From a virus: 25,615 nt of DNA. Under the pieces are notes generated by a model. That model saw nothing but the letters and a program-made list of their open reading frames with translations. It searched no databases and had not been told where the DNA came from. Position 1 is the stretch's first letter. Each line of letters opens with the position of its first letter. The position numbers and the translations under genes are program-made. The stretch lies in the UHGV virus genome UHGV-0137099; one strand, given 5' to 3'. Below, in pieces: positions 35 through 14,248 of this stretch.

Positions 35-121
35 GCCCGGATGGTGGAATCGGTAGACACAAGGGATTTAAAATCCCTCGGCGTTCGCGCTGTGCGGGTT
101 CAAGTCCCGCTCCGGGTACCA
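35..121 (+). tRNA. leuZ: tRNA-Leu (anticodon UAA), type II tRNA with long variable arm
   Basis: 87 nt; acceptor stem GCCCGGA pairs with TCCGGGT followed by ACCA; anticodon stem AGGGA/TCCCT with loop TTTAAAA giving anticodon TAA; T-arm GGTTCAAGTCC. Likely integration target of the adjacent integrase. Confidence 0.85.
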
Positions 122-252: not shown

Positions 253-1269
253 TCATTTTTTCTGACCGCCGACAACCGGCACGATTTTAGTTTTCCTGTC
301 GTAAATCGCCGTTTGTCTCGAATTCTTATGTCCTGAAATCGCCTGTTTCTCCTCGAGGCTTCCTTCCAGATCAGAGACACCTTTCGCTTTCAGATCGTGG
401 AAAGTGAAATCTATCTGCAGGTGTGGGTTCTTTTCCTGCGCTGCGATTTTGGCGTCGCGCCAGCGTGAATTAAAACCATCGCGGGTATATTTGCTGCCGC
501 TGGTCTGGTGAATGACAAACAGGCTACGGATGCCCGGCTTTAACGGCAGGGAACGGGCGAGGGCGACAGCGGCGCGCAGGCGTGGAGACCATGCTTTGAT
601 TTGCTTCACGCCTGTTTTCCCCTGGCGGATAAAGATCCCGGTTTCGCGTATCTGGTCTTCAGTCAAAGCCAGCACATCGCTTTGTCTGGCGAGACACAAA
701 TAAGCGATTTCCATGGTGGCGCGAACTACGTCCGGAGCAACATCGTAAACCGCTTTGTATTCTTCGTCGGTGATGTAACGCTCTCGGGCCGTCTCTTTGA
801 ACTTCTTAACGCCCTGACAGGGATTATGATGAACGTAACCGCGCTCATAACCCCAACGGAATACCCGCGAAAGAAAACTCTTTTCCCGATTAGCCTGCGT
901 TTTACTGGCCATGCCACGCTGATCCATATAGCGCCGGATGTGTTCTGGTTTAATTTTATCCGGGTTAACCTTCCCGAATACCGGCAACACTTTGCCTGCG
1001 TATTTCGTGTAGTCTTTTCGGGTTTCTGCCGCTAAATCCTGCCAGTCAGGGGAAGACATAAATTGCTCGGCCAGCGCCTGAAACGTCTTGCGCTCGACTT
1101 CTTCTCCCATGGCTTTTTCATATGCCAGCCATACAGCTGATTGAGGCTCGGAGAGCGCACATAGCCTGATAGCCTTGTTATCTTTATTCCTGAATTCATA
1201 CGCCGCCTTGCCGCGATACACGCGGGGCGGCATCCAGTTATCTGCGGGGTTCTTACGCTTTCCGGCCAT
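253..1269 (-). CDS. int: Tyrosine-type site-specific integrase (lambda Int family)
   Basis: 338 aa; C-terminal catalytic region TFHDLKAKG ... GHKNSRQTAIYDR resembles lambda Int TFHELRS ... GHKSDTMASQYRDD (His/Arg/Tyr recombinase motifs); adjacent to a tRNA and reading toward it. Confidence 0.93.
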   Translation of the reverse strand: MAGKRKNPADNWMPPRVYRGKAAYEFRNKDNKAIRLCALSEPQSAVWLAYEKAMGEEVERKTFQALAEQFMSSPDWQDLAAETRKDYTKYAGKVLPVFGKVNPDKIKPEHIRRYMDQRGMASKTQANREKSFLSRVFRWGYERGYVHHNPCQGVKKFKETARERYITDEEYKAVYDVAPDVVRATMEIAYLCLARQSDVLALTEDQIRETGIFIRQGKTGVKQIKAWSPRLRAAVALARSLPLKPGIRSLFVIHQTSGSKYTRDGFNSRWRDAKIAAQEKNPHLQIDFTFHDLKAKGVSDLEGSLEEKQAISGHKNSRQTAIYDRKTKIVPVVGGQKK

Positions 1270-1498
1270 TAAAGATAGCTCCGAAGTCTGGTTCTTCCTC
1301 CCGCACCGTCTCTTCCTGCTGGTTGCGGTATTTAATCGGGTTCAGGAAATGGCCCCACGTCGTTTTAGGATGGCCGTCTGCCCTTTCCATGAAAAAGACT
1401 CCGGCCCGGCGTAGCGCTTCACACTGCCGCGATTTAAGCGGTGTCCCCGTCAGTTCGATCATTTCCTCTCTGGTGATGATGTCGTGATCGTGTCTCAT
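1253..1498 (-). CDS. xis: Excisionase-like small DNA-binding protein (putative Xis)
   Basis: 81-aa ORF directly upstream of int, overlapping the int start by 17 nt (classic xis-int arrangement); start preceded by GAGGAAAGACC. Product assigned by position and size only. Confidence 0.55.
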   Translation of the reverse strand: MRHDHDIITREEMIELTGTPLKSRQCEALRRAGVFFMERADGHPKTTWGHFLNPIKYRNQQEETVREEEPDFGAIFNGRKA

Positions 1499-1654
1499 GG
1501 TCTTTCCTCAGCATGCCGGCTATCGCGTTGTCTGCCGTATCGCAAGCGCGTTGGATATCGGACTGGGTCAGAGTCCTCTTTCTAACGCTGGCTGATAGCC
1601 TGCCAATTTTGATATCGAAATCTGAAAGTAAAAGTGTGCCTGGTTGCCAACGTA

Positions 1655-1691
1655 GCATTGTGATCTCCGGTTCATAGGTAGATCACAATGC
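1655..1691. repeat. Perfect 12-bp inverted repeat (GCATTGTGATCT / AGATCACAATGC) with a 13-nt spacer
   Basis: Read directly from sequence; lies in the non-coding gap upstream of xis on the minus-strand operon. Confidence 0.7.
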
Positions 1692-1707
1692 TAACGACGG
1701 TTGCGAG

Positions 1708-1893
1708 TTATTTCTGATTAGGCTTAATCAGGTTTGGTTTATTACGGAACGCGCCATTTTCGCGGGTGATTTTGGCACTGCGCGGGAAATGCATAGCCAG
1801 TTCACAACGCGCGCAGGCTTCGATTATCCCGTTAGTACCGTCCGGAAAAACGACGTGAAGCGCGTCGCCTCGTTTCAGTGTGAGTTTCAGCAT
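1708..1893 (-). CDS. Hypothetical small protein (61 aa, from the internal ATG of the 73-aa track ORF)
   Basis: ATG at 1893 lies 2 nt after the stop of the upstream gene (TGAtATG coupling); same strand as the operon. No recognisable motif. Confidence 0.4.
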   Translation of the reverse strand: MLKLTLKRGDALHVVFPDGTNGIIEACARCELAMHFPRSAKITRENGAFRNKPNLIKPNQK

Positions 1894-1894
1894 A

Positions 1895-2461
1895 TCAGCG
1901 CACCTGCAGTGAACGTTCGCCAATCTCAAGGTGAGCGCCCGGCACTGGGTTTAACAGTTCTTCCGGTATCTCTCCGCCGTCAGCGCTAATCTGGGCCGCT
2001 GCTGCCTGTGCTGATTCAATCGCTTCCTTGATGGCTTTCTTGTCCGGAGTGACTAACGTCTGAACTGTCACTAATTCATCCGGCAGTAATTCATCGTTAT
2101 CGATCACGACGTTTATAGCCCCCTTGCGTGCGGTAAAAGTATTTTTGGCGGTTTTAACCGTATCCTGACCGGCGGCCAGAAGGCACTGGAGAACATACTT
2201 CTTCAGGTTAGCGATCTTGCCTTCGAATGATTTTTTTCGGGCGGCGAGGCGTTTGGCCTCTTCATCGCAGGTTTTCGCCAGACCTTCCAGATTGCGAACG
2301 TGGACGAATACGGCATCCAGTTTATCGCCGAGTTGTAACTCGAGACCTTCCATTGTGTCGGCGATCATTTCCGGAGACAGACCAGAACCATCTTCATTTT
2401 CCAGAAGCGCCTGGAGTTTTGACATATCGGCAGCGATAGCAATAGCAGTAGTGGAAGTCAT
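1895..2461 (-). CDS. Hypothetical coiled-coil protein of the recombination module (possibly Gp157-like)
   Basis: 188 aa, acidic, helix-rich; start ATG overlaps the stop of the upstream annealase gene by 1 nt. Family assignment is by position next to an annealase only. Confidence 0.5.
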   Translation of the reverse strand: MTSTTAIAIAADMSKLQALLENEDGSGLSPEMIADTMEGLELQLGDKLDAVFVHVRNLEGLAKTCDEEAKRLAARKKSFEGKIANLKKYVLQCLLAAGQDTVKTAKNTFTARKGAINVVIDNDELLPDELVTVQTLVTPDKKAIKEAIESAQAAAAQISADGGEIPEELLNPVPGAHLEIGERSLQVR

Positions 2462-4611
2462 TATGCTTTCTCCTCGGCTTTATTCAGTTCCTTAATACGG
2501 CCATCCTTAATGGTGATGAGTCGGCGGAGTCGGCCAGACAGATAGCGTTCATGCTGCGTATCGCCGTTGGCCTGGGCGGCTTTAATGTGTACATCGATCT
2601 CACGTGCAATAGGGGAAAATACGCCATTGATTTCGTTCACCGTCACGCCATGCGCCAGGGTATTCGCAACGCGGCTTAATTTGTCGTCAAACTCCTGGCG
2701 AAGCCGTGCTGCATCTTCGGCTGATTCGCTGGCATTCTTCAGGTCAAACTCGGCCTTATTCTTCTGGCGGTACTCCAGATTGTCGTAAAGCCCCATAAAG
2801 ATATCGCCGCTGAATCCGAGGCCGGATAACGCTTTTTTGGTCGCATCAGTCAGTGATTTCTTGGCTGCTTCGCCGTCGCAGGTGATCCCATATTTACTGC
2901 CGTAGATGTAGGGTGTACAGCCGTATGCTGTTTCCTCACCTCGTACGCCGTTCAGGATGTACCAGAGCCGGACAGTCACAACATGGTGCTGTTCGTTGAC
3001 GGTATTACCATTCCCATCAAGAACCAGCTCCCACGATGCGTTGTTGTCTTTTCCTTTTACCTGGCGAGAGATCGGCGCGCCAATATCGAAACGCTCTTCA
3101 ACAATATCCACGCCCCAGCCGATACCCTTAGGGCCAAACTCACGGGTGGCGAGCATGGTCATGTAGGTACCGTTGATCGAGGTGCCACCGCCGTTCTGTG
3201 TGAAAGCCTTAGTAAACCTTTCGTCGGTTTTAAATACGCGTTTCCAGAGGTCTAAATTGTCTTCCCCGATGATTGGTTTTCCGACAGCCTGCACAACATC
3301 CTCAGCGTTAGGCAGGCTTTCAGCGTGAGCGATTTGTTTTGCTAAACGCTCGGAATCATCAGCCAGTTTTTCAGCCTTAACGCTTAACTTCTCTTCCGGC
3401 TCTGCACCTTCACCAGAGGCATATACGCCATAACCCATATCATTGAGCGTCTCACGCGCCTGTTTGGCCTGGGTGTCGGTTACAACCGGCTGCGGCGCTT
3501 CCACTTTTTCGCCCACGTTTGAGGCGGTATTTTGCGTCGCCTCTGGTTGTTTAACGGATCCTGTCTCGGTTTCCTCAAAGCGGCCGTTGGCCGCCAGCCA
3601 TGAATCGATATGGCGGCGCAGGCTGTCAGGGAAATGGTAGGTATCTTTCGCCGGTACGTTTTGTACCACGCCGAAGATGCTGGCGCGGTCGTATTTGAGT
3701 ATCTGCGGCGTGGTGTGCAGCGATGCTGACCAGCGTTTAAAATCTTCCCGGTCATCGGAAATCATCTTCTTAGCGTCCAGAAGGTTTCCGGATAGTACCG
3801 GCGCATCAGGCGCCAGCGGGAGAAGGGCGGTAGCGATCTCCTGATCCAGCGTTGCATAAGTGTGTTTATACCCGCGCTTAGAAATTACCACTGGCGTTTT
3901 ATCATCGGTGCTGGTGCTGAGAGCGGTATTTTTATATACGCCAGGGGCCAGTTCGTCGCGTTTGCCCGGATTCTCAAGCCAGCTTTTAACGAACTGAGAG
4001 ATAGCCGCTTTACCCGGCGTCTGGTTTTCAAAGTGGGAGAAAATACCCTGAATAAGATTGTTCAGACCTTCCACATGCATGCTTTGAATCGGGAAGTTAT
4101 TTTGCAGGGCGCACAGCACGTTAAAGTTGAAGCGGTCTTCTTCTTCAAATTCCCCATCGTGGTTTTTCAGGTTATCCAGATAATCCACAACCTGAGAATA
4201 AAGATGGCCATCAATCGCCGCGGTGCTAAAAAGCAGGACGGCAGCAAAGCGTTCTTCAGCGGAAACGGTCATAAGGTCGATCACTTCATCGTCGGCAGGT
4301 AAACCAGCACTACTTCCGGAAGCGCTATCCTGCACAGTAGAAATCCATTTTTCACCGTCAAAAGTATGCTGCTGGGCGAATGACTCATCGAACTGGCCAA
4401 CGGTAGGCAGCGGCTGGCCTTCAATGTGTTCCCACAGTTTCGGTTTGAAATAGTTGTCACCATTGGCCGGGTATGATTCCCAGAGTTTGCCGGTCATAAT
4501 GCTTTCGGCCACTTTTTTGTTTGGCGCATCGATTGCGATCGTCAGCTGAACGGCGCCGCAGTCTTTAATCGCCGATTTCTTTGGCTCAAATAAGCCGTTG
4601 TAGATGGTCAT
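2461..4611 (-). CDS. Rad52-family single-strand annealing protein with a ~450-aa N-terminal extension of unknown function
   Basis: C-terminal region FGPKGIGWG ... AYGCTPYIYGSKYG ... AAKKSLTDATKKALSGLGFSG resembles the Rad52 annealing core (FGYNGW ... KARKEAVTDGLKRALRSFG). Start chosen at ATG 4611 (MTIYNGLF...), which is directly preceded by GAGGAAAGACCA; the track's longer start at 4644 lacks this. Confidence 0.75.
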   Translation of the reverse strand: MTIYNGLFEPKKSAIKDCGAVQLTIAIDAPNKKVAESIMTGKLWESYPANGDNYFKPKLWEHIEGQPLPTVGQFDESFAQQHTFDGEKWISTVQDSASGSSAGLPADDEVIDLMTVSAEERFAAVLLFSTAAIDGHLYSQVVDYLDNLKNHDGEFEEEDRFNFNVLCALQNNFPIQSMHVEGLNNLIQGIFSHFENQTPGKAAISQFVKSWLENPGKRDELAPGVYKNTALSTSTDDKTPVVISKRGYKHTYATLDQEIATALLPLAPDAPVLSGNLLDAKKMISDDREDFKRWSASLHTTPQILKYDRASIFGVVQNVPAKDTYHFPDSLRRHIDSWLAANGRFEETETGSVKQPEATQNTASNVGEKVEAPQPVVTDTQAKQARETLNDMGYGVYASGEGAEPEEKLSVKAEKLADDSERLAKQIAHAESLPNAEDVVQAVGKPIIGEDNLDLWKRVFKTDERFTKAFTQNGGGTSINGTYMTMLATREFGPKGIGWGVDIVEERFDIGAPISRQVKGKDNNASWELVLDGNGNTVNEQHHVVTVRLWYILNGVRGEETAYGCTPYIYGSKYGITCDGEAAKKSLTDATKKALSGLGFSGDIFMGLYDNLEYRQKNKAEFDLKNASESAEDAARLRQEFDDKLSRVANTLAHGVTVNEINGVFSPIAREIDVHIKAAQANGDTQHERYLSGRLRRLITIKDGRIKELNKAEEKA

Positions 4612-4655
4612 TGGTCTTTCCTCTTGGTTTCTGGCGCAGGTCACGCGCCGGTTAA

Positions 4656-4979
4656 TTAAAACGGTACGTCGCTTTCTTCAATCGGAGAGTGATCGATGCA
4701 CAGCAGCTGCTGAATCTGGTCTTCAATAACACCCAGCTCCTTCTTAGCTTCGGCAGAGATTTTCTCTTTCTTCGCGCGAAGGGCATTAACCTGCATACCA
4801 ATAATGTCGATTGGTTCTAAAGCCGGGATGGCAACCTCTACCGTTTTGGTAGTAACGAGGACATACAGATCAGGGTATTGCTGTGACATGTCACAGGTGA
4901 ATGAGTGATAAGACGTTGGTAGATATGGGTTCGTTGTGGCCATAACGTAAACAGTTACGGGGATGGTAAGCGCTTCCAT
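4656..4979 (-). CDS. Hypothetical protein (107 aa)
   Basis: ORF on the operon strand with a strong SD (AAGGAG, 6-nt spacing) before ATG 4979. An alternative layout is an upstream 47-aa ORF from 5035 coupled to an internal ATG at 4889 (see findings). Confidence 0.5.
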   Translation of the reverse strand: MEALTIPVTVYVMATTNPYLPTSYHSFTCDMSQQYPDLYVLVTTKTVEVAIPALEPIDIIGMQVNALRAKKEKISAEAKKELGVIEDQIQQLLCIDHSPIEESDVPF

Positions 4980-5035
4980 AGCGACTCCTTGTTGATGTAT
5001 ACTCAGAGCCGATCAGTGTTGACTCTGTCGGCATT

Positions 5036-5427
5036 GGTCTTTCCTCATCACAAGCTTGGTCGCTTGTGATAAGTCCGAATGGTTTGGTCACCGTTCGGGG
5101 TAACTGGCCCGCCTTGTGCGGGCCTTTTGCCATCTAAAGGTTGCCGGTCTTTCCCGGCTGTCAGGGCTGGTCACGCCCGTTGGTCATTGGTCTTTCCTCC
5201 CGGTCTTTCCCGGCGCCAGAGCTGGTCAGGCTCGCTGGTCTTTCCTCACAGGCTCCCTCTTTTCGAGGGCTTCAGTTTTCACTGAACGGTCGCATAAATC
5301 TTTACTGTGTTAAAAAAATGCCCGGGGCGCCCGGGCCAAGACTACACACAGCAATTCGTATTCGTTGCGGTCTTTCCCGCATGTCATCGTACTGTCGGCG
5401 ACCCGAAGAATTCGTGCCCGTCTTTCC
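5036..5427. repeat. Array of at least 7 copies of the core GGTCTTTCC (minus-strand sense GGAAAGACC), several extended to CGGTCTTTCCCGG...CTGTCAG/GCTGGTC units
   Basis: Copies at 5036, 5146, 5189, 5202, 5237, 5369 and a degenerate one at 5419; the same core precedes start codons at 1499 and 4613. Confidence 0.8.
5312..5336 (-). terminator. Rho-independent terminator for leftward transcription
   Basis: GC hairpin GCCCGG-GGCGC-CCGGGC; on the minus strand it is followed by ATTTTTTT. Confidence 0.6.
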
Positions 5428-5581
5428 GGACTGTCAGAACTGTTTCTGAACAACTGCCGCGTGGTTAGTGCGTCGTTGATGTGATGTAATTTAGGTAAAT
5501 CTAACAAATTGGTCAATGATTAAATTAGAAAAAACGAACAATATGAGCGTAAAAAAATACATCTATCTGATTAGAAAGGGA

Positions 5582-5968
5582 TTATTTTTGTTTGCGGGCT
5601 TGCAGTAACTCTTCAAATAAACGATTGAAACCGTCTACTTTTTCGCGAAGTTCCGTTAAATGCCGCTCTTTTTCAGATTCAGGGAGTGACGAAAAGAGTT
5701 TTAAAAGCTCTGTTTCTCGTTCATCTAACGGCGGCGGGGTGTCTACCGGGGTTCCCGGAGTGGCGGCTTCATCGCCGTAAAGTATCCAGGTAGGGCTGCA
5801 TTGAAGTGCGTTACTTAAAGCGAATAGGTTTTTCCCGCCAGGCTCACTATCACCGGTCTCCCACTGGGAGATAGTGACGTGCGCGACGTTAACCAGCTTC
5901 GCTAAAGCGCGCTGAGTAAGTTTGAGATCTTTTCTACGCGCTCTGATGCGCTCACCTGGCATTGTCAT
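5582..5968 (-). CDS. Phage repressor, short XRE-family HTH protein without a LexA-like peptidase domain
   Basis: 128 aa; N-terminal HTH (LKLTQRALAKLVNVAHVTISQWETG); divergent from a Cro-like gene; no SD upstream of the ATG, so possibly leaderless like lambda cI from pRM. Confidence 0.8.
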   Translation of the reverse strand: MTMPGERIRARRKDLKLTQRALAKLVNVAHVTISQWETGDSEPGGKNLFALSNALQCSPTWILYGDEAATPGTPVDTPPPLDERETELLKLFSSLPESEKERHLTELREKVDGFNRLFEELLQARKQK

Positions 5969-5970
5969 AG

Positions 5971-6025
5971 TTAGATAATTCTAAATTTCCTTGACTTCGT
6001 TATCTCGAACACCTAATTTGTTAGG
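5971..6025. promoter_or_regulatory. Immunity-region operators and a rightward sigma70-like promoter (pR-like)
   Basis: Palindromes TTAGATAATTCTAA (5971-5984) and CCTAATTTGTTAGG (6012-6025); -35 TTGACT (5991-5996), 17-bp spacer, -10 TAATTT (6014-6019); SD CAGGAGGG before the cro-like ATG at 6049. Confidence 0.55.
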
Positions 6026-6048
6026 AAAATCTAACAGGAGGGTGTTTC

Positions 6049-6243
6049 ATGTTAACAACTGATGCGATCAAATATTTTGGTAGTAAGAGAAAACTGGCTG
6101 AGGCCGCTGGCGTTAAGGCTCCTACTGTCTATGCGTGGGGGCGTTTGGTTCCTGAAGGTAAAGCGGCTCGTTTGTCTCTGATGACTGATGGCGAACTTGT
6201 TTATGACCCAAAGGCTTACCAACTGCCAGCCAAATCAGCTTAA
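6049..6243 (+). CDS. cro: Cro-like repressor (P22 Cro family)
   Basis: 64 aa; IKYFGSKRKLAEAAGVKAPTVYAWGRLVPEGKAARLSLMTDGELVY parallels P22 Cro IDHFGTQRAVAKALGISDAAVSQWKEVIPEKDAYRLEIVTAGALKY (recalled from memory); divergent from the repressor. Confidence 0.8.
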   Translation: MLTTDAIKYFGSKRKLAEAAGVKAPTVYAWGRLVPEGKAARLSLMTDGELVYDPKAYQLPAKSA

Positions 6244-6305
6244 CAATTGGCGGCATCGAAATCTGATTACGCTTAATCAATTTTCAGCGACAGGAGACGC
6301 TCGAA

Positions 6306-6752
6306 GTGGAATACCTCGAAGAACTTAAACGAGAGATCTTTAACTGGGCAGCGGAAAGCGGGCAGGAGCTGGTTGCTATCGAGATAAGCCGCATGTGGTT
6401 TCGTCTTGGTGGTAATACCGGTTCGCTGAAGCTGCACCAGATCGAAGATGCAGATGGAAACGCCGACTGGCGGGCAATCAACAACAACCGCCAACAAATT
6501 TTTCGTTGGTTGAGAGGCGAGACCAAAGCCGCGAGAGCCAAAACTCTGGCGCTGGTCAAAGCGATGGAAGCGGCGCTGCCGGCAGAGCGTTACGCTCGCT
6601 TGGGTATGTCCACCCAGTATTTAATTTGTGTGGCCATTCGTGAGTTTGCCGCGGCGATTATCGCGTTGTTACTCGACGCCAGAGACGGGCCGCAGCAAGT
6701 CGCCAGAGCATTGCAAGCTATGCGAGAAACACAGCGCCTGACCAGCGTTTAA
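6306..6752 (+). CDS. Early regulatory protein, possibly CII-like / YdaT-family
   Basis: 148 aa with GTG start and AGGAG SD; sits where cII lies in lambdoid phages (right after cro). Family call is tentative. Confidence 0.45.
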   Translation: MEYLEELKREIFNWAAESGQELVAIEISRMWFRLGGNTGSLKLHQIEDADGNADWRAINNNRQQIFRWLRGETKAARAKTLALVKAMEAALPAERYARLGMSTQYLICVAIREFAAAIIALLLDARDGPQQVARALQAMRETQRLTSV

Positions 6753-6772
6753 CCTGTACCGAGGAAAGACCA

Positions 6773-6994
6773 ATGAGAACACAAGACCGCATCACCTGGC
6801 GGAACGGGTTTCGCCGGAACGGGGTACAAGTCCCGATAGAAGATATCGAATCGATTTTCGAGGAACGTCGCGCTACTGCGCTGACAATCTGGGAACGCTA
6901 TGAACTGCGTAAGGCAGACCTACAGGAAGCGGGACTCACCCAGAAAGAATACGAAATCGCCTGCCGCCAGCTGGCTGACTCGCTGGGGATTTGA
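6773..6994 (+). CDS. Hypothetical protein (73 aa)
   Basis: Start preceded by the conserved GAGGAAAGACCAATG module and an upstream GC hairpin. Confidence 0.5.
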   Translation: MRTQDRITWRNGFRRNGVQVPIEDIESIFEERRATALTIWERYELRKADLQEAGLTQKEYEIACRQLADSLGI

Positions 6995-6996
6995 CT

Positions 6997-7980
6997 ATGA
7001 GTATGACGCTTATGGCCAAAGCAATGGCAATCAAGACCGGAAACCCGATTCGAAAACTGGTGCTGATCAAACTGGCTGATAACGCCAATGATTACGGCGA
7101 ATGCTGGCCGTCTTACAAACATATTGCGGATCACTGCGAGTGCAGCAAAAGCGCGGTGCGTGACCATATCGATGCGTTAATTTCTATGGGCCTGCTGGTG
7201 AAAGAAAATCGCCCGGGCGTAAAAAACGGGAAGGGTAACGCGTCGAATTTGTACTGTATGAAACTTGATAACCCTATGCCGCCAAAAAGCATAGCCCCTA
7301 TGCCGTCAGAAAGCACAGGTATGCCGCCAAAAAGCATAGCCCCTATGCCGTGTGGCGGCACCAGAACCAGTCACTCTTTTGAACCAGTCATAGAACCTAA
7401 AGATCCCCCTAACCCCCAGACGGGGGAAGGCGATGAAAAAATTAATTCTGATGCTAAAAAAGCGCTGGATTTTTACAACGAGCAAACCGGTACCCGCTGC
7501 CGTGACCTGAAACCTTTTGTGATGATGCTGACGCCGACCACCACCCGGGAAGGTTACACCCTGGACGAATTGCAGTTAGTTATCCGCTGGGTGCTGGCCA
7601 CATGGCGCCGCCGTGGCGATAGCCTGCCGAAGCCAGCGAACATCTGCCGGGTAAACCGCTTTGATGGTTATCTTGCTGACGCTGAAGCATGGGCGGTGAC
7701 AGAAACCGATATTGATCCGGAAGCCGTTATGAACGGCTACAACGAAATTTTTGCTGACGTTCTGCCTGCTGCTGAACTGGACACCGACCGCCGCCGGATG
7801 ATCACCCGACTTGCCGCCCACATGAAAAACAAAACCACGGGCGCATTTCTGGGTTATTTCGAAAAATTCCGCGCTGACGCCTCCGATTTTTACTTTGGTG
7901 AAAATGGCGGATGGCGCGCCAGCTTTGACTATCTGATGAAACCAGAGACATTGCGTAAGACCAGGGAGGGCGCTTTATGA
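6997..7980 (+). CDS. Replication initiation protein (lambda O-like role), N-terminal winged-helix DNA-binding domain
   Basis: N-terminus IRKLVLIKLADNANDYGECWPSYKHIADHCECSKSAVRDHIDALISMGLLV looks like an HTH replication-initiator domain; contains internal iteron-like DNA repeats; directly followed by a DnaB-like helicase with ATGA overlap. Start could be TTG 6991, ATG 6997 or ATG 7003. Confidence 0.7.
   Translation: MSMTLMAKAMAIKTGNPIRKLVLIKLADNANDYGECWPSYKHIADHCECSKSAVRDHIDALISMGLLVKENRPGVKNGKGNASNLYCMKLDNPMPPKSIAPMPSESTGMPPKSIAPMPCGGTRTSHSFEPVIEPKDPPNPQTGEGDEKINSDAKKALDFYNEQTGTRCRDLKPFVMMLTPTTTREGYTLDELQLVIRWVLATWRRRGDSLPKPANICRVNRFDGYLADAEAWAVTETDIDPEAVMNGYNEIFADVLPAAELDTDRRRMITRLAAHMKNKTTGAFLGYFEKFRADASDFYFGENGGWRASFDYLMKPETLRKTREGAL
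7272..7350 (+). repeat. Iteron-like repeats inside the initiator gene (candidate origin of replication)
   Basis: 30-bp unit ATGCCGCCAAAAAGCATAGCCCCTATGCCG occurs twice (7276-7305, 7321-7350), built from alternating CTATGC / GCATAG half-sites; followed by an AT-rich stretch around 7430-7480. Confidence 0.55.
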
Positions 7981-9383
7981 TGCAGATGATGTATTCCACT
8001 CAGGAACTGGAATGTCTGGTTCTTGGCTGCCTGATGAACGGTGGCGCCACGCCAGACGCCTTTGATGTGATTGCCAGCACTCCGAGCGAAGCTTTCAGCG
8101 TCGCATACTACAGGCAGATTTACGGTGTGATCAAAGCGCAGGCCTTGAGCGGCGGCTTAATTGACATGATGTACATTAGCGAAGCCATTGGCGGACAGGG
8201 GACGCTGGCCAATCTCGCCGATATTTGCAAATTCCCGACATCGATCGTCAATCTCAAAGGCTACGCCAAAAAAATGGTTAAGGCCTGGCGAAGCAGAACC
8301 ATCGCGCAATTACTCCAGGATGGTGCGGATGGTATTCGTGATGCGATAAACCAGGAACAGCGCGATCAGGTTGTCGAAACTGCCGTTGCGCAGCTGCTGG
8401 ACATGACCGGCGACACTGGCGACGTGCAGCCGGTACATATCAGCGAATTATTGCCGGTGTACATGGAAACCATTCAGAAGCGCATGGACGGTGAAGAGGG
8501 TACCCGCAACCTGAAAACCGGGATCGACGAGCTGGATGAAGTCACTGGAGGTTTTAACCCACAGGATTTGATTGTTGTCGGTGCACGCCCGGGTATGGGA
8601 AAAACCGAGCTTGCGCTGAAGATTGTCGATGGTGTTACCGCTGCCGGCGGTGGAGTGTTGATATTCAGCATGGAAATGGCCGCTGCGCAAATCTTAGAAC
8701 GCTCTCTGGCGGGTTCTGGCAACATGTCAGTGTCACGCCTGCGTAATCCCCTCGATATGCAGGACGAGGACTGGGCGCGCTTTACAGCGGCCATGGAGAC
8801 CATGAACGGGCGCGATATCTGGATCGTTGATGCTACCGATCTGACGATTGAGCAAATCCGCGCCGTTGCCGAAACGCATAAGCGCCGGTATCCGCATCTG
8901 GCGATGATCGTTGTCGATTACCTTGGCCTGATTAAAAAACCGAAGGCAGAGCGTAACGACCTCGCGATCGCCCACATATCCCGAAACCTTAAAACTATGG
9001 CTATGCGCCTGCATACGCCGACTTTCGCGCTTAGCCAGCTTTCCCGCGCTGTGGATTCCCGCCCAGCGGCCCAGCGCCGCCCGGTCATGTCAGATCTGCG
9101 CGATTCAGGTTCTATTGAGCAGGACGCCGACAGCATCATGTTTCTGTATCGCGATGAGGTTTACAACCCGGAAAGCCCGGCGGCTGGCGTCGCTGAAATT
9201 ATCCTGGGTAAAAGCCGCTTCAGCGCCGCAGGCGCAATTATTTATCAGGAATTTAAAAACGGACACTTTCTGTCTATGGATCAGCATGTTGGCAAAGAGA
9301 AAACACGTATCCAACTGGAGGCCGCGAAACCCCGGAAACAACCCCGTAAATACTCTGAGAAATTCAATACCGATGCATTTTAA
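7977..9383 (+). CDS. Replicative DNA helicase, DnaB family
   Basis: 468 aa; Walker A GARPGMGKT, Walker B-like IVVDYLGL, helicase C-terminal motifs (SQLSRAVDSR, SDLRDSGSIEQDAD). Confidence 0.93.
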   Translation: MMQMMYSTQELECLVLGCLMNGGATPDAFDVIASTPSEAFSVAYYRQIYGVIKAQALSGGLIDMMYISEAIGGQGTLANLADICKFPTSIVNLKGYAKKMVKAWRSRTIAQLLQDGADGIRDAINQEQRDQVVETAVAQLLDMTGDTGDVQPVHISELLPVYMETIQKRMDGEEGTRNLKTGIDELDEVTGGFNPQDLIVVGARPGMGKTELALKIVDGVTAAGGGVLIFSMEMAAAQILERSLAGSGNMSVSRLRNPLDMQDEDWARFTAAMETMNGRDIWIVDATDLTIEQIRAVAETHKRRYPHLAMIVVDYLGLIKKPKAERNDLAIAHISRNLKTMAMRLHTPTFALSQLSRAVDSRPAAQRRPVMSDLRDSGSIEQDADSIMFLYRDEVYNPESPAAGVAEIILGKSRFSAAGAIIYQEFKNGHFLSMDQHVGKEKTRIQLEAAKPRKQPRKYSEKFNTDAF

Positions 9384-9421
9384 CCGCGCCTGACCAGCGC
9401 GATTTAACAGAGGAAAGACCA

Positions 9422-10090
9422 ATGACCACGAATTTAAATTACCCAAAACCAGTAAAACCGGATGATGGCTGCAACTGGCTCCCCGTTATTCTCTGGCGCA
9501 TGAACGCCGGCGCGCGCGCCCGTAGCCGTTCCGTGTTCGTTGCGGCGCCACGTCCGGCACCTGTACCCGGCATCACCCCGCAAAAACCGATTAAACGTGA
9601 AATTATCGCCCCTACGGTTTCCGGTCGCAGGCGAAAAACCCACATCGGCACTGTGATTTATTCCAGAGGTGAAAAAAACGTTCGCCTGAGTGAAGGTGCT
9701 ACCGTCTGGTCTGCTGGCTCTAATGAGCATTTCGATAAAAAAACGGGCCGGCGCGTTGGCAGTATTGGCCGTCACCGTCTGGTGCTTGAGAGTATTCGCC
9801 CATTGCGGGCCAGCGACGAACAGCAGGACGCCGGGAGCATCACCGCGCAGCAACTGGTATCCGTGATGAAAGGCAAAACGCTTTCTTACCAGGGCATTCT
9901 AGCATTAATCCAGAAGCACTACCCAGATTGTCAGGTGACGATTAAAGAACTTCACGATCGCGTGTTCGGCATGTTCATGTCGAATTACGTGGGTATCACC
10001 CGTCACGACGATATGCCGGTGGTTCACTTCACGCTTAACAGCGTCGATCCCCGTTATTACATCGAGTCAGCGAAGAACAAGAGGGCATAA
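9422..10090 (+). CDS. Hypothetical protein (222 aa, basic N-terminal half)
   Basis: ORF preceded by GC hairpin CGCGCCTGACCAGCGCG and AGGAAAGACCAATG; no recognisable motif. Confidence 0.55.
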   Translation: MTTNLNYPKPVKPDDGCNWLPVILWRMNAGARARSRSVFVAAPRPAPVPGITPQKPIKREIIAPTVSGRRRKTHIGTVIYSRGEKNVRLSEGATVWSAGSNEHFDKKTGRRVGSIGRHRLVLESIRPLRASDEQQDAGSITAQQLVSVMKGKTLSYQGILALIQKHYPDCQVTIKELHDRVFGMFMSNYVGITRHDDMPVVHFTLNSVDPRYYIESAKNKRA

Positions 10091-10093
10091 GGC

Positions 10094-10327
10094 ATGGCCG
10101 GGCAATCAGATTACTTGCCGCCCGGCTTACCGCTCAATCGCGCCAAATGGCCGCAGGAGTGCCAGATCAAAGAGCACTACGACATGCGCGCCTCGGCACT
10201 CATACGCCAGCTGTTCGAGAAGAAAGTTACTCGACAGGCCATCGTAGAACAGATTGCAGCGACGCCGGAAAGCTACCGGGAGTTTTTCAAAGAGAGATTG
10301 AATTTTTGGCGGGAGAAGCGGACATGA
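10094..10327 (+). CDS. Hypothetical protein (77 aa)
   Basis: Tightly packed ORF 4 nt after the previous stop. Confidence 0.45.
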   Translation: MAGQSDYLPPGLPLNRAKWPQECQIKEHYDMRASALIRQLFEKKVTRQAIVEQIAATPESYREFFKERLNFWREKRT

Positions 10328-10494
10328 AATTTTCAACACCTGATTTTATGCATTGCAGCCGCAGGACGCTGATGCTGTTCGTACTCAGTGCAAATGTTGT
10401 TGGCTGGATAGTCATTATCGCTCTTATTTGGGCTGGATGTGAGGTTGTGCAGTGGGCGCTGGAATATCTCCGCAGTAGTGGGGTGCTGGCGTGA
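10324..10494 (+). CDS. Small predicted membrane protein (56 aa)
   Basis: ATG overlaps the upstream stop (ATGA); hydrophobic core LMLFVLSANVVGWIVIIALIWAG; its stop overlaps the next start (GTGA). The track's longer start at 10147 would overlap the upstream gene. Confidence 0.4.
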   Translation: MKFSTPDFMHCSRRTLMLFVLSANVVGWIVIIALIWAGCEVVQWALEYLRSSGVLA

Positions 10495-11081
10495 ATAACA
10501 AATACACCTTGATTTATGCGGATCCGCCCTGGACGTACCGCGATAAAGCCAAAGATGGCGAGCGTGGCGCCGGGCATAAATACCAGACCATGACTGTGCT
10601 CGATATCTGCCGTCTCCCGGTCTGGGAACTGGCCGCTGAAAACTGCCTGCTGGCTATGTGGTGGGTGCCGACTCAGCCGCTGGAGGCGTTGCGAGTAGTC
10701 GAGGCGTGGGGCTTCCGTCTGATGACCATGAAAGGCTTTACGTGGAACAAATGCTACAGCCGGCAGACCGACAAACTGGCCCTCGGAATGGGCCATATGA
10801 CCAGAGCGAACAGCGAGGATTGCCTTTTCGCTGTGCAGGGGAAATTACCCGCCCGGCTGGATGCCGGGATCGTTCAGTCATTCGTGGCCCCGCGTCTGGA
10901 GCATTCGCGCAAACCGGATATCGTGCGCGAAAAGCTGGTGCAGCTGCTGGGCGATGTACCGCGTATTGAGTTATTCGCCCGCCTGTCGTCGCATGGTTTC
11001 GACGTGTGGGGTAATCAGTGTGAATCGCCAGCGGTGACGCTGCTGCCGGGCATTGCAGAATATATCGGGGAGGTAGCATAG
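10491..11081 (+). CDS. MT-A70-family N6-adenine DNA methyltransferase
   Basis: 196 aa; catalytic DPPW motif (LIYADPPWTY) and downstream conserved blocks typical of the MT-A70 family; GTG start. Confidence 0.8.
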   Translation: MNNKYTLIYADPPWTYRDKAKDGERGAGHKYQTMTVLDICRLPVWELAAENCLLAMWWVPTQPLEALRVVEAWGFRLMTMKGFTWNKCYSRQTDKLALGMGHMTRANSEDCLFAVQGKLPARLDAGIVQSFVAPRLEHSRKPDIVREKLVQLLGDVPRIELFARLSSHGFDVWGNQCESPAVTLLPGIAEYIGEVA

Positions 11082-11264
11082 ATGGCAGATTTTAGCGCAA
11101 CCAAAAGAACCGCGTCGCTCGAAGATTGGGGCGACGCGCTGGAATTAATCGTCGAATTAAATGGTAAATCATTCGATATCACAGAAATGGAGATTGAAGC
11201 CGCTTACGAGGCATATAAGCGAGTTGATGATTTTTTTTATGACGAATGGGGTGATGATCAATGA
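11082..11264 (+). CDS. Small very acidic protein (60 aa; 17 Asp/Glu against 5 Lys/Arg)
   Basis: ORF exactly filling the gap between the two methyltransferase genes; composition counted from the translation. Confidence 0.5.
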   Translation: MADFSATKRTASLEDWGDALELIVELNGKSFDITEMEIEAAYEAYKRVDDFFYDEWGDDQ

Positions 11265-12094
11265 TTGAAAAAAAAATCAGGCATCCTGTAATCAGATATC
11301 ACGGCGGGAAATTCCGACTGGCACACTGGATTATCGAGCAGATGCCGGACCACGTCTGCTATGTCGAACCGTTCGGCGGCGCTGCTGGCGTATTGCTTCA
11401 AAAATCGCGTAGCTATTCAGAGGTGTACAACGATCTCGACGGCGAGGTGGTGAACCTGTTTCGTGTGTTGCGCGACCCTGAATTAAACCAGCGCCTGCAG
11501 GATGCCTGTTGCCTGACCCCGTATTCACGCGATGAGTTCTGTCACGCTCAGCAACCAGCCACTAACCCTATCGAACGCGCCCGCCGTATGGTGGTTCGTG
11601 CCTGTATGGGGTTCGGCTCTGCCGCAGGTATCGGCGGTCAATCCGGCTTCCGCAGCGACAGCAAACGCAAATACGCTACGGCGGCGCATCTATGGGAGCG
11701 TTACCCGGCTAATCTCGCTGTTGTCTGTCAGCGCCTTCAAGGAGTCATCATCGAGAACAAAGACGCTCTGGCGGTAATGCGCGCCCACGACGCAGAAACG
11801 ACGCTGCATTACATCGATCCGCCATATATGCCGGAAACACGAGTGCAGAAAAATCGTTATTACAACCATGAAATGACCGTTGAAGGGCATGAGCAATTGC
11901 TCGCTGTGTCCAGAACGATGAAAGGCATGGTGATGATTAGCGGTTACGACACTGATGTCTACAACGACATGCTATCCGGCTGGGCGAAGACCGAGAAAGC
12001 ATCGCGCATCAGTGCCGGTCGCGGTATGAAAGTCCGTACTGAATGCCTCTGGCTTAACCCTGCAGCACAACAGAAACAGGAGCGTGCAGCATGA
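11261..12094 (+). CDS. Dam-like (D12 class) N6-adenine DNA methyltransferase
   Basis: 277 aa; SAM-binding motif EPFGGAAGV and catalytic DPPY (HYIDPPYM). Confidence 0.88.
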   Translation: MIEKKIRHPVIRYHGGKFRLAHWIIEQMPDHVCYVEPFGGAAGVLLQKSRSYSEVYNDLDGEVVNLFRVLRDPELNQRLQDACCLTPYSRDEFCHAQQPATNPIERARRMVVRACMGFGSAAGIGGQSGFRSDSKRKYATAAHLWERYPANLAVVCQRLQGVIIENKDALAVMRAHDAETTLHYIDPPYMPETRVQKNRYYNHEMTVEGHEQLLAVSRTMKGMVMISGYDTDVYNDMLSGWAKTEKASRISAGRGMKVRTECLWLNPAAQQKQERAA

Positions 12095-12127
12095 CAAAAT
12101 GCTGTAAGTGCTGCGAGAAGGTGATTT

Positions 12128-12466
12128 ATGGCTAAGTCATCCGCAGAACGTAAAGCCGCGCAGAGGGCGCGGCAATCTGCCGCCGGCAACCGGAAAATTG
12201 AGCTGGTTCTCGATGCGCAGGAAATGGACATGCTGGCGCGTAACTGCGCCGCCCGGCGCCCGGGCCGTGAACCGTACGAACTGGCCGAGTACATAGCTAT
12301 GCTGATCCGTCAGGATGATGTGCGGCTTAGTGGCCACATCAAATCGATCAGCAAACGCCTGTGTGGAAAGTGCGGTGAGTCGCTGCCGATCACCTCCTGC
12401 CCGTGTGCTGGTGATTCGCAATGCTGGGTAACGCGCGGGTGGCACGAAACTAAGCTGACAGTGTGA
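12128..12466 (+). CDS. Hypothetical protein with C-terminal Cys cluster (CGKCGESLPITSCPCAGDSQC)
   Basis: 112-aa ORF; possible small zinc-binding protein; no family recognised. Confidence 0.45.
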   Translation: MAKSSAERKAAQRARQSAAGNRKIELVLDAQEMDMLARNCAARRPGREPYELAEYIAMLIRQDDVRLSGHIKSISKRLCGKCGESLPITSCPCAGDSQCWVTRGWHETKLTV

Positions 12467-12541
12467 GGAGTAATCATTTTTTATGAAGCCTTATATGTTC
12501 TTGATAAAAGATGTGATTTATCAATTTATGCCCTTAAAAAT

Positions 12542-12570
12542 TTGCGATCACTACTCGTTGGTAGTATATA
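12542..12570 (+). promoter_or_regulatory. Sigma70-like promoter inside an AT-rich moron
   Basis: -35 TTGCGA (12542-12547), 17-bp spacer, -10 TATATA (12565-12570); followed by palindrome ACTGTGAATTTATACAGT and SD GGAGAGG. Confidence 0.45.
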
Positions 12571-12609
12571 TACTGTGAATTTATACAGTATTATTGTTGA
12601 GGAGAGGTA

Positions 12610-12801
12610 GTGGTTGATAAGAAAGACGCAGGAGACCTTCTCCCCGACAATGGTGATGTACTGATTACTTGTGAAAATGGGAAGATTAAGAAGACCAGAA
12701 TTGTCCATCCCGATGAGCACGTAGCGACACTTAACGCGTTGTTTGAATTAGCTAAATTGACTGGTTATACCATTATCAAACCAGACGGCAATATGCTATA
12801 A
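12610..12801 (+). CDS. Hypothetical small protein (63 aa) in an AT-rich moron
   Basis: GTG start after SD GGAGAGG; local GC clearly lower than its neighbours; own promoter-like sequence upstream. Confidence 0.4.
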   Translation: MVDKKDAGDLLPDNGDVLITCENGKIKKTRIVHPDEHVATLNALFELAKLTGYTIIKPDGNML

Positions 12802-12869
12802 TTACACCGTTGGCCTGAACACCCAACACCATGTAATTCTGAACAATTGCTGCGCTAAAGGGGATCCCA

Positions 12870-13466
12870 ATGGCGCAGTATTCTTTTGTAAAAGCACCCG
12901 GCGGTGTATTAATTCCGGCAACGCCTGACGCCCGCGATTTTTTAGAAAAAAAAGTCCGCCTGGGCGGTATTTTGTATGCAGATTTTAAGCAGGCAAGAAA
13001 CCCGGCATTTCACCGTAAATTTTTTGCCCTCCTGAATCTTGGATTTGATTACTGGCAACCTTCCGGCGGTGCAATATTGCCAGCTGATAAAAAACTGGTT
13101 CGTGGTTATGTGCAACTGGTAGCCCACTATGCCGGGCATGCAGACACGTTGCAGGAACTGGCGGATCAGTACCTCCGCGATGAGGCAGAAAAACGCGCAG
13201 GGAATATCAGCGCTGTTAAATCGTTTGAAGCATTCCGTTCCTGGGTAACTATCGAAGCTGGTTTTTATACCGAATACCAGATGCCTGATGGCACCACCCG
13301 CAAAGAACCCAAATCCATATCGTTCGCAAAAATGGACGATGTAGAATTCTCCCAGCTGTATAAATCCGTATTAGACGTCCTCTGGAATTTTATTCTATTC
13401 CGCACCTTCCCCAATCAGCAGGCAGCGGAAAACGCAGCCTCTCAGCTTTTCAGTTATGCGGCCTGA
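12870..13466 (+). CDS. Hypothetical phage protein (198 aa)
   Basis: Long clean ORF with SD AAAGGGGA upstream; no catalytic motif recognised. Confidence 0.6.
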   Translation: MAQYSFVKAPGGVLIPATPDARDFLEKKVRLGGILYADFKQARNPAFHRKFFALLNLGFDYWQPSGGAILPADKKLVRGYVQLVAHYAGHADTLQELADQYLRDEAEKRAGNISAVKSFEAFRSWVTIEAGFYTEYQMPDGTTRKEPKSISFAKMDDVEFSQLYKSVLDVLWNFILFRTFPNQQAAENAASQLFSYAA

Positions 13467-13476
13467 GGCGGACACT

Positions 13477-13953
13477 ATGAAATTCAATATTCGCTCTCAG
13501 ATCGTCGAAATGGATGTGGCCGACGCCCTGAATTTTGTGGGTTACCCCATCCACATTGGCTCGAATGGCTATGCAAAAGTCACCGGCTGGCATTTTGGCA
13601 AGGAAAGATACCTTCATCGCGTCATCATGAATGCGGGACCTCAGGATGTTGTTGATCACATTGATGGTAATAAGCTCAACTGCTCCCGCTCAAATTTGAG
13701 GATCTGCACACAGTCAGACAATACCAAAAACGTTGGTTTGAGGAGTGACAATAGCTCGGGAATTCCGGGAGTTTACTGGGTACCCACTCGCCTCAAATGG
13801 GCGGCGCAAATTTCAGTTGATGGCAGGACTGTTAGTTTAGGCCGCTTTGATGAAATGGCCGATGCTATCGATGCCCGCCGGAAAGCAGAAGATTTGTATT
13901 ACGGGGAGTTTGCAGCCAGCAAGGGGGTGCTTTGTGAAAAAGCGCACCAGTAA
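13477..13953 (+). CDS. HNH endonuclease with C-terminal AP2 DNA-binding domain (homing-endonuclease-like)
   Basis: HNH block HRVIMNAGPQDVVDHIDGNKLNCSRSNLRICTQSDNTKN; AP2-like block GIPGVYWVPTRLKWAAQISVDGRTVSLGRFDEMADAIDARRKAEDLYYGEFA. Start set at ATG 13477, after the upstream stop. Confidence 0.8.
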   Translation: MKFNIRSQIVEMDVADALNFVGYPIHIGSNGYAKVTGWHFGKERYLHRVIMNAGPQDVVDHIDGNKLNCSRSNLRICTQSDNTKNVGLRSDNSSGIPGVYWVPTRLKWAAQISVDGRTVSLGRFDEMADAIDARRKAEDLYYGEFAASKGVLCEKAHQ

Positions 13954-14248
13954 ATCAGACAAACAGCATTTCCAAGATCTCGTAGAGATAGGTTGTATTG
14001 TCTGCAAAGTACACCTCGGCGTGTACTCCCCCCCTGAAATTCACCACATCCGCAAAGGGCAGGGCATAGCCCAGCGCGCCGACCACAAAGAAACTCTCCC
14101 GCTTTGCCCTCCACACCACAGAACCGGCGGACACGGCGTAGCTATCCATGCAGGGCAAAAAACATGGGAAGAAAACTACGGAACGGAGACTGAATTGCTC
14201 GAACAGGTCACTAACGAGGTAAAGGAATTACGCTTATGCAGAATTTAA
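13934..14248 (+). CDS. HNH-family nuclease, Ref-like (recombination enhancement function) candidate
   Basis: Cys/His pattern CIVCKVH ... HHIRKG ... LPLCPPHH typical of zinc-finger HNH nucleases; GTG start at 13934 preceded by AAGGGGG. The track's longer start would overlap the HNH-AP2 gene. Confidence 0.5.
   Translation: MKKRTSKSDKQHFQDLVEIGCIVCKVHLGVYSPPEIHHIRKGQGIAQRADHKETLPLCPPHHRTGGHGVAIHAGQKTWEENYGTETELLEQVTNEVKELRLCRI

Follow-up and report, generated by a model that had tools for sequence, protein, structure and literature searches.

In this work, we analyzed a small and very acidic gene that lies between two DNA methyltransferase genes in the virus genome UHGV-0137099; the whole stretch of DNA analyzed (25,615 nucleotides, hereafter the window) is one end of a Klebsiella prophage integrated at tRNA-Leu. 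The open reading frame (ORF), at positions 11082-11264 of the plus strand, runs from ATG to TGA over 60 codons (MADFSATKRTASLEDWGDALELIVELNGKSFDITEMEIEAAYEAYKRVDDFFYDEWGDDQ), and its product carries 17 acidic residues (9 D and 8 E) versus 5 basic ones (3 K and 2 R), as well as 9 aromatic residues. The isoelectric point (pI) of this product is 4.05, and at pH 7 its net charge is about -12.5. It tops the acidity ranking of the 111 ATG-initiated ORFs of at least 45 amino acids in the window, with a net acidic fraction of 0.20 versus a window mean of -0.063 (standard deviation 0.077), that is, about 3.4 standard deviations higher. A first-pass annotation had proposed the product as a candidate DNA mimic with an anti-restriction function, comparable to Ocr or ArdA, on account of its charge, its early placement and its methyltransferase neighbors. 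The 60-amino-acid ORF and its balance of acidic and basic residues were confirmed from the sequence. The analyses reported here describe a genuine gene exchanged among unrelated mobile elements and tentatively suggest a stand-alone role for its product. The features at the locus are the following:

10491-11081, plus strand: gene of an orphan N6-adenine DNA methyltransferase of the MT-A70 family (PF05063, E 3e-23; DPPW motif; PADLOC MTase_II)
11067-11073, plus strand: Shine-Dalgarno sequence GGGGAGG, 8 nucleotides 5' of the ATG of the acidic ORF and within the 3' end of the MT-A70 gene
11079-11084, plus strand: TAG/ATG junction, where the MT-A70 stop codon (11079-11081) abuts the ATG of the acidic ORF
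11082-11264, plus strand: hyper-acidic 60-amino-acid gene of the PHROG 519 family (ORF, composition, PHROG match, ratio of non-synonymous to synonymous substitution rates (dN/dS), AlphaFold2 model)
11261-11264, plus strand: ATGA overlap, where the stop codon of the acidic ORF shares 4 nucleotides with the start of the Dam-like gene (translational coupling)
11261-12094, plus strand: gene of an orphan Dam-like (D12 class) N6-adenine DNA methyltransferase (PF02086, E 5e-21; FGGAAG and DPPY motifs)
11078-11277, no strand assigned: extent of the horizontally exchanged cassette (blastn boundaries and GC content)

The tight packing between an MT-A70 and a Dam-like gene that the first-pass annotation had described thus stands, with both methylases recognized by their Pfam families and with the two junctions as listed. 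Both methylases look orphan and phage-type, because no restriction endonuclease partner is evident nearby; the Dam-like gene matched the dam subfamily of NCBIfam below the cut-off. A scan of the plus strand between the MT-A70, acidic and Dam-like genes found no promoter-like site, and the sole terminator-like match on that strand in 10491-12094 was a weak one of 3 G-C pairs inside the Dam-like gene (11373-11388). Rfam and repeat scans gave neither an Rfam family nor meaningful repeats around the acidic ORF; the one Rfam match was the tRNA-Leu that marks the end of the prophage.

The exact protein (P0001) is present on 131 contigs, labelled only as hypothetical protein (Klebsiella/Raoultella group). 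Its only library match was PHROG 519, a family of unassigned function (E 4.2e-8, 34.7 bits, residues 1-59); searches of Pfam (E up to 0.1), NCBIfam and PADLOC gave no match. Homologous clusters numbered 86 in a word-indexed search and 177 in a profile-seeded one, all of 57-72 amino acids, and all 177 were named hypothetical or 'prophage protein'. The family is compact, since only 15 clusters at 50% identity came out when 1.84 billion representatives were searched exhaustively with a profile. Its members are always free-standing ORFs of that same length, and a C-terminal extension or fusion of a neighboring gene was therefore rejected; on this point the first-pass annotation holds, and the ORF looks like a genuine, translated gene. 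The family consists of two branches. That of the window protein (…FDITEMEIEAAY…) was found in 36 phage records, and a divergent branch (MADFxSTK…FEEWxEQL…ELxG…W..DY.AGK…YDEWG) in 243, among them Ackermannviridae (Vi01, Det7, KpS110, LIMEstone1) and the Shiga toxin (Stx) phage ArgO145. The carriers taken as a whole are lambdoid, P22-like, T1-like, Vi01-like and phi92-like phages, including Lederbergvirus, Webervirus (Drexlerviridae), Stephanstirmvirinae, Ackermannviridae and Stx phages. The divergent branch also occurs in 120 plasmid records, 108 of them typed as conjugative, from Klebsiella, Raoultella, Providencia, Proteus (Rts1) and Citrobacter. The family is absent from the descriptions in the libraries and papers searched and is a new, unrelated family among the small acidic proteins of mobile elements.

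Codon comparison of the acidic ORF with the copies of a P22-like Salmonella phage and of another Klebsiella prophage gave a dN/dS of about 0.06. Relative to Citrobacter phage Tr1, 32.5 of 33.5 synonymous sites have changed, with only 8.5 non-synonymous differences, so that 91% amino acid identity is kept between distant elements despite saturated synonymous sites. The acidic ORF is hence a genuine gene under strong purifying selection across many unrelated mobile elements. Nucleotide homology (blastn) to four unrelated element types, namely the Lederbergvirus UPF_BP1, a Klebsiella prophage with the gene at a variable site, the Stephanstirmvirinae phage Tr1 and the Webervirus KpV522, is limited to 11078/11082-11263/11277, which is the ORF itself, and the GC content of the ORF is 0.40-0.43 versus 0.57-0.61 in the flanking methylase genes. 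Homology sets in and breaks off together with the ORF, and the gene therefore travels alone, as a one-gene cassette. The nearest phage genome, vB_SmeS_BUCT708, matches about 12 kb of the window at 85% identity and has the MT-A70 gene too; in that genome (locus L004, 4159-5810), the genes of an RloB-domain protein and an ATPase, on the opposite strand, replace the acidic ORF, the Dam-like gene and a regulator-like gene (window 11082-12466). The slot between the MT-A70 and DUF1367/NinB-like genes is therefore a site where accessory cargo is swapped. We also observed that the RloB and ATP-binding pair of BUCT708 is defense-like, and that BUCT708 and BUCT709 (OM816834/OM816835), deposited as Stenotrophomonas phages, share about 85% identity over about 12 kb with this Klebsiella-type prophage (window 1495-13468), a likeness that makes their host label or origin doubtful.

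Regarding the structure of the protein, AlphaFold2 gave the same confident model from two different alignments (predicted local distance difference test scores of 87.6 and 88.2), in which an ordered N-terminal arm (residues 1-12) packs against a three-helix mini-bundle made of helices 13-26, 35-43 and 48-56. A Foldseek search of the model against the Protein Data Bank (PDB) gave no match (best E 2.6), the family profile found only chance hemagglutinin matches among PDB sequences (E at least 0.2), and the fold search of BFVD returned only uncharacterized small phage proteins, with template modeling scores of 0.72-0.84. Acidity is kept throughout: 49 diverse members have net charges of -9.4 to -16.5 and pI values of 4.05-4.3, which makes extreme acidity a conserved trait of the family. 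In these members, W16 and Y42 are invariant, positions 18 and 25 (E18 and E25) are always acidic, and D3, E14, E15, D50 and D54 are acidic in at least 82%. The conserved aromatics are W16, Y42, F/Y52 and W/F56, and the N-terminal arm (MADF-S-T-K) is conserved as well, while the C-terminus is not. Judging from helix periodicity, E14, E18, (E21) and E25 would line one face of helix 1 (i, i+4, i+7, i+11).

A neighborhood survey covered the three genes to either side of the family member in 85 loci, of which 76 are IMG/VR loci (those among 80 in which the ORF could be located) and 9 are of other origin. It yielded 164 neighbor clusters, the commonest of which is confined to one E. coli lineage, and the commonest neighbors are all lineage-specific (DUF7167 in 46 loci, a phrog_660 protein in 45, DUF551 in 33 and Ead/Ea22-like proteins in 28). 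MT-A70 and D12 neighbors occur only in the lineage of the window prophage, in 2 of the 85 loci, and they are the sole methyltransferase families among the 25 of 30 Pfam families listed for 56 neighbor-cluster representatives. The adjacency to methylases, on which the first-pass annotation had partly built its anti-restriction argument, accordingly loses its force, all the more as DNA homology stops at the borders of the ORF. For the same reason of linkage in 2 of 85 loci only, an accessory or specificity subunit of a methyltransferase, or a regulator of one, was rejected. Elsewhere, the family gene has Ead/Ea22-like genes on one or both sides in P22-like and Stx phages, where it is part of the early-left accessory region; it lies within runs of small ORFs of unassigned function in Tr1 and Webervirus, and at the prophage edge in another Klebsiella element. 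In Vi01 (locus L027, 3001-3195), the member Vi01_151c is directly 3' of the major capsid gene on the same strand, an arrangement common to Vi01-like Ackermannviridae and an unusual one for a gene presumed to be early or accessory.

Several recurrent companions were noted in this survey. DUF7167 (phrog_1997; MRKFKIIIETGIAGGDFEDEFEVDDDATPDEIQDEAKD...) is a second hyper-acidic protein of about 60 amino acids, encoded directly 5' of the family member; this tandem pair is found in lambdoid/Stx prophages of E. coli, such as ArgO145 (locus L026, 3326-3508), and accounts for the 46 loci mentioned above. A Mom-like DNA-modification gene (phrog_1384) lies two genes 3' of the member, at about 320-350 bp, in seven IMG/VR loci (L080, L082, L083, L089, L098, L104 and L106), and is a second, independent DNA-modification gene near the family. 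A small phrog_21024 gene, absent from the window and with the conserved C-terminus KTDPPF.DQ.DAN.HVAEELTYWTP, follows the member in P22-like and other prophages (L001, 3215-3319; L013, 4180-4404; L030, 3165-3410). A conserved partner gene was rejected, as DUF7167, Ead/Ea22-like and phrog_21024 are all lineage-specific.

Plasmid members of the family lie in long co-directional arrays of small genes of unassigned function. In Rts1, the origin of transfer (oriT) was mapped experimentally between orf251 and mobI (PMC10838148); mobI is at 188,793-189,221. Some 8 kb from oriT and on the flank opposite the tra genes, the family member (WP_011039858) occupies 197,135-197,311 and is co-directional with higBA and psiA (209,193). 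Anti-defense genes of plasmid leading regions (Samuel et al. 2024) lie near oriT in the part transferred first, oriented like neighbors such as psi and ssb. The member of pT-OXA-181 is also in an array with psiA. Occurrence in accessory or early phage arrays and in an oriT-proximal plasmid array is typical of anti-defense or establishment genes.

We then compared the protein with known mimics, taking as reference the 11 validated DNA-mimic anti-defense proteins for which EVADES Table S6 (doi 10.1101/2025.06.06.658234) gives sequences. Its charge density of 0.20 per residue is exceeded among these 11 by Ocr only (0.239), and an hmmsearch of the family profile against them gave at most 1.7 bits. 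Ocr (T7 gp0.3) is likewise a small, helical and extremely acidic phage protein that acts alone on host DNA-binding enzymes; however, hhalign gave a probability of 0.3% and hmmsearch -2.5 bits for the pair, with no PDB sequence match or fold match, and Ocr is an elongated dimer of 117-residue chains encoded by the first gene to enter the cell, whereas the window protein has 60 residues, a compact three-helix model and a place in a delayed-early operon. ArdA is also acidic, is promiscuous among mobile elements and is found on conjugative plasmids near oriT, in leading regions, but it has 166-169 residues in three domains, and neither the Pfam ArdA family nor hmmsearch (-0.2 bits) nor structural comparison related it to our protein. 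The profile, hhalign, PDB and Foldseek comparisons thus gave no sequence or fold relationship to Ocr or ArdA, which the first-pass annotation had invoked for their function and not necessarily for their sequence. T7 Gp5.9, which blocks RecBCD, is the closest in size (52 residues versus 60) and is helical and acidic (0.15 per residue), and a protein this small can therefore be a DNA mimic; it differs in that there is no sequence similarity, no Gp5.9 entry came up in the PDB sequence and fold searches, and the model obtained here is a globular mini-bundle, whereas Gp5.9 is presumably a coiled-coil dimer.

Small acidic anti-CRISPR proteins (Acrs) offer a further parallel. AcrIF15, AcrIF18*, AcrIF2 and AcrIIA4 have 69-97 residues and a pI of about 4 and occur in prophages and plasmids of Klebsiella, Serratia and Salmonella; such Acrs are proposed or shown DNA mimics and cluster with methyltransferases and anti-restriction-modification genes (PMC7648647). 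The N-terminal motif of the family is not in the supplementary sequence tables of that study, so that the protein is not AcrIF15, AcrIF18* or AcrIE8, and hmmsearch against AcrIF2 and AcrIIA4 was negative. AcrIE10 was rejected on architecture, being a larger protein with ribbon-helix-helix and Acr parts and with PDB entries that the family profile did not match. No aca-type regulator lies directly 3' of the acidic ORF, the phrog_536 gene being separated from it by the Dam-like gene, and no regulator is a conserved neighbor in the 85 loci. Besides Pinilla-Redondo 2020 (PMC7648647), the supplements of Samuel 2024, Silas 2023 and EVADES likewise gave no match to the N-terminal motif; those confirmed to hold sequences are EVADES (for Ocr) and Pinilla-Redondo (for Acrs). 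The true relatives are PHROG 519 and, in BFVD, the small phage proteins W6B140 of Erwinia phage Ea9-2 and I0J310 of Dickeya phage LIMEstone1, the latter phage having appeared in the tblastn family search as well; they give the family a name and no mechanism. In summary, the acidic protein resembles DNA mimics in composition, size and lifestyle and is a member of no described mimic family.

The remaining features of the prophage place the gene within its transcriptional setting:

35-121, plus strand: tRNA-Leu
253-1269, minus strand: integrase
1895-2461, minus strand: Mu Gam-like gene
2461-4644, minus strand: large exonuclease
5582-5968, minus strand: repressor
6991-7980, plus strand: O-like initiator
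7977-9383, plus strand: DnaB helicase
10094-10327, plus strand: theta/HolE-like gene (DNA polymerase III theta, like P1 Hot; phrog_1105, E 2e-29; Pfam DNA_pol3_theta below the cut-off)
10324-10494, plus strand: 56-amino-acid membrane protein
12128-12466, plus strand: phrog_536 regulator-like gene
12870-13466, plus strand: DUF1367/NinB-like gene
13456-13953, plus strand: HNH endonuclease
after 13953, plus strand: head genes

The acidic ORF is in the rightward operon behind the replication genes, in a position like that of the lambda nin region. The early placement put forward in the first-pass annotation is not supported for this prophage, where the gene follows the replication genes and does not lie at the end that enters the cell first, as ocr does; in many phages the gene does sit in early or accessory arrays. 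Other observations concern the surroundings of the methylase block. The theta/HolE-like gene lies just 5' of it. Within the Dam-like gene, an A9 tract (11270-11278, codons 3-6) is A8 in one of eight sister assemblies (L005, around 4189), where it frameshifts the long Dam-like frame and the later start chosen by the gene caller gives 267 instead of 277 amino acids; the difference could be phase variation or an assembly error. A low-GC stretch 3' of the regulator-like gene (12420-12810, 0.35-0.36) may be a module boundary; within it, just 5' of the DUF1367 gene, the sequence at 12773-12802 (10 of 12 positions, extended TG) resembles a sigma-70 promoter more closely than any other match in the region. 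Finally, the region of the HNH/AP2-type gene (13468-14030) is an insertion of about 560 bp where sister prophages have about 95 bp; it takes the place of the 5' end of the DUF968/RecA-dependent-nuclease gene, which is consistent with a homing endonuclease.

Altogether, the function that we favor, with a probability of about 0.4, is that of a stand-alone establishment or anti-defense factor whose acidity would serve to decoy a host protein that binds nucleic acids. Under this proposal, the acidic protein would act soon after the element begins to express its genes; as a nucleic-acid mimic in a broad sense, it would occupy the basic surface with which a host protein conserved in Enterobacterales binds nucleic acids, and so block that protein. 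Binding might occur through the conserved carboxylates (D3, E14, E15, E18, E25, D50 and D54) together with the aromatics (W16, Y42, F/Y52 and W/F56), and the strong constraint on the sequence argues for a precise interface. The protein would act alone, and its spot between the methylases would be due to chance, the cassette having landed in a slot prone to swaps; even so, the three genes may be of joint use as an island of anti-restriction type. What the analyses show is a constrained gene, its mobility as a cassette, the acidity of the whole family, a predicted fold and the spread over phages and plasmids; that the protein engages a host target, does so as a decoy and thereby profits the element is inferred. 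Since no neighbor is conserved, a role as a subunit is disfavored. Carriage by plasmids as well as by lytic phages argues for a host-directed function that is not lethal, and against lethal takeover, and the hyper-acidic DUF7167 protein or the Mom-like gene close to the member in some lineages is suggestive. A more specific form of this proposal, which we regard as quite unlikely as it stands, is a pan-element establishment factor with a fold of its own, whose EEW.E motif (helix 1) and D-E-W-G motif (after helix 3) would imitate nucleotides and jam a conserved enterobacterial sensor or nuclease of incoming or replicating foreign DNA, possibly single-stranded; the target would then be other than the type I restriction-modification or bacteriophage exclusion (BREX) complexes of Ocr and ArdA.

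Several points weigh against a decoy of this kind. Acidity alone is a weak predictor of mimicry, and our searches linked the protein neither by sequence nor by fold to Ocr, ArdA, Gp5.9, Arn, Ugi or the DNA-mimic Acrs. Neither the post-capsid position in Vi01 nor the post-replication position in this prophage is that of a classic first-expressed gene. The Rts1 array is, by its position, no more than a putative leading region, and in a plasmid-wide deletion study of Rts1 the member was not among the genes needed for conjugation; the latter counterpoint is tempered by the recipient used, HB101, which is hsdS20 and thus restriction-deficient. Moreover, the very high conservation is unlike that of many fast-evolving anti-defense proteins and could reflect a housekeeping target or an element-encoded partner.

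A housekeeping target is the core of the alternative that survives best, which we nevertheless hold to be unlikely: the protein would modulate a nucleic-acid-binding protein such as RecBCD, RecA/SSB, H-NS or HU, for example in host takeover or in the suppression of the SOS response or of nucleases, as do Gp5.9, PsiB, Arn and Gam. An invariant target would fit the 91% amino acid identity at saturated synonymous sites, and the array shared with psiA by the Rts1 and pT-OXA-181 members points in the same direction. The tails of SSB and T7 gp2.5 are acidic and aromatic-ended and occupy DNA-binding clefts, and the conserved EEW.E and DEWG motifs resemble these tails; the C-terminus of the family is, however, not conserved, unlike in SSB-tail mimics, and no homology to Gp5.9, Gam, Arn or PsiB was found. 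The Mu Gam-like gene and the exonuclease of the leftward operon indicate that the biology of DNA ends matters to this prophage.

The reading closest to the first-pass annotation, an Ocr/ArdA-like mimic of double-stranded DNA directed against type I restriction-modification or BREX and forming an anti-restriction module with both methyltransferases, appears rather improbable. It accounts for an acidity comparable to that of Ocr and for a gene translationally coupled, within one operon, to those of two orphan N6-adenine methyltransferases, and it agrees with the clustering of methyltransferases and anti-restriction genes in anti-defense islands (PMC7648647, PMC11541004) and with the Mom-like gene near members in seven other loci. 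Nonetheless, the linkage to methylases is seen in only 2 of 85 loci and homology ends at the ORF borders, neither homology nor fold similarity connects the protein to Ocr or ArdA, and expression behind the replication genes would come late for shielding incoming DNA from type I enzymes. In addition, a 60-residue monomer would span the equivalent of at most about 8 bp, unless it is oligomeric.

Equally doubtful is a role internal to the element, in which the acidity would reflect the partner: the protein could be an adaptor or chaperone for replication, recombination or packaging, or an antitoxin-like neutralizer of a basic partner. Its location among DnaB, theta-like and NinB-like genes in this prophage, the capsid gene next to it in Vi01 and the phrog_21024 gene that follows it in P22-like and other prophages are in line with such a role, but no neighbor is conserved across contexts in the 85 loci and 164 clusters, the replication and packaging systems of the carriers (lambdoid, P2-like GPA, T1-like and Vi01-like elements and IncT plasmids) are unrelated, and no toxin-like partner is adjacent in the window. 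An open frame that arose by chance, or a remnant without function, as the 60 codons and the lack of a Pfam or NCBIfam family and of a name in any source might suggest, is practically excluded by a dN/dS of about 0.06 with saturated synonymous sites, 177 clusters of constant length, a good Shine-Dalgarno sequence with translational coupling, a confident AlphaFold2 fold and the PHROG 519 match.

Should the acidic protein act as a decoy, it would add a new and structurally unrelated family to a short list, which counts 11 validated anti-defense mimics in EVADES. Even if it has another role, the present results correct the inference that adjoining methylases imply a shared function. The family is unusually widespread in clinically important hosts: it occurs in prophages of Klebsiella, Salmonella and E. 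coli and is also found in lytic phages of therapeutic type (Webervirus, Ackermannviridae) and in conjugative resistance plasmids (IncT, Klebsiella megaplasmids). The identity of its target could show which host barrier in Enterobacterales holds back infecting phages and incoming plasmids alike, and the protein could give a 60-residue tool for phage therapy or transformation.

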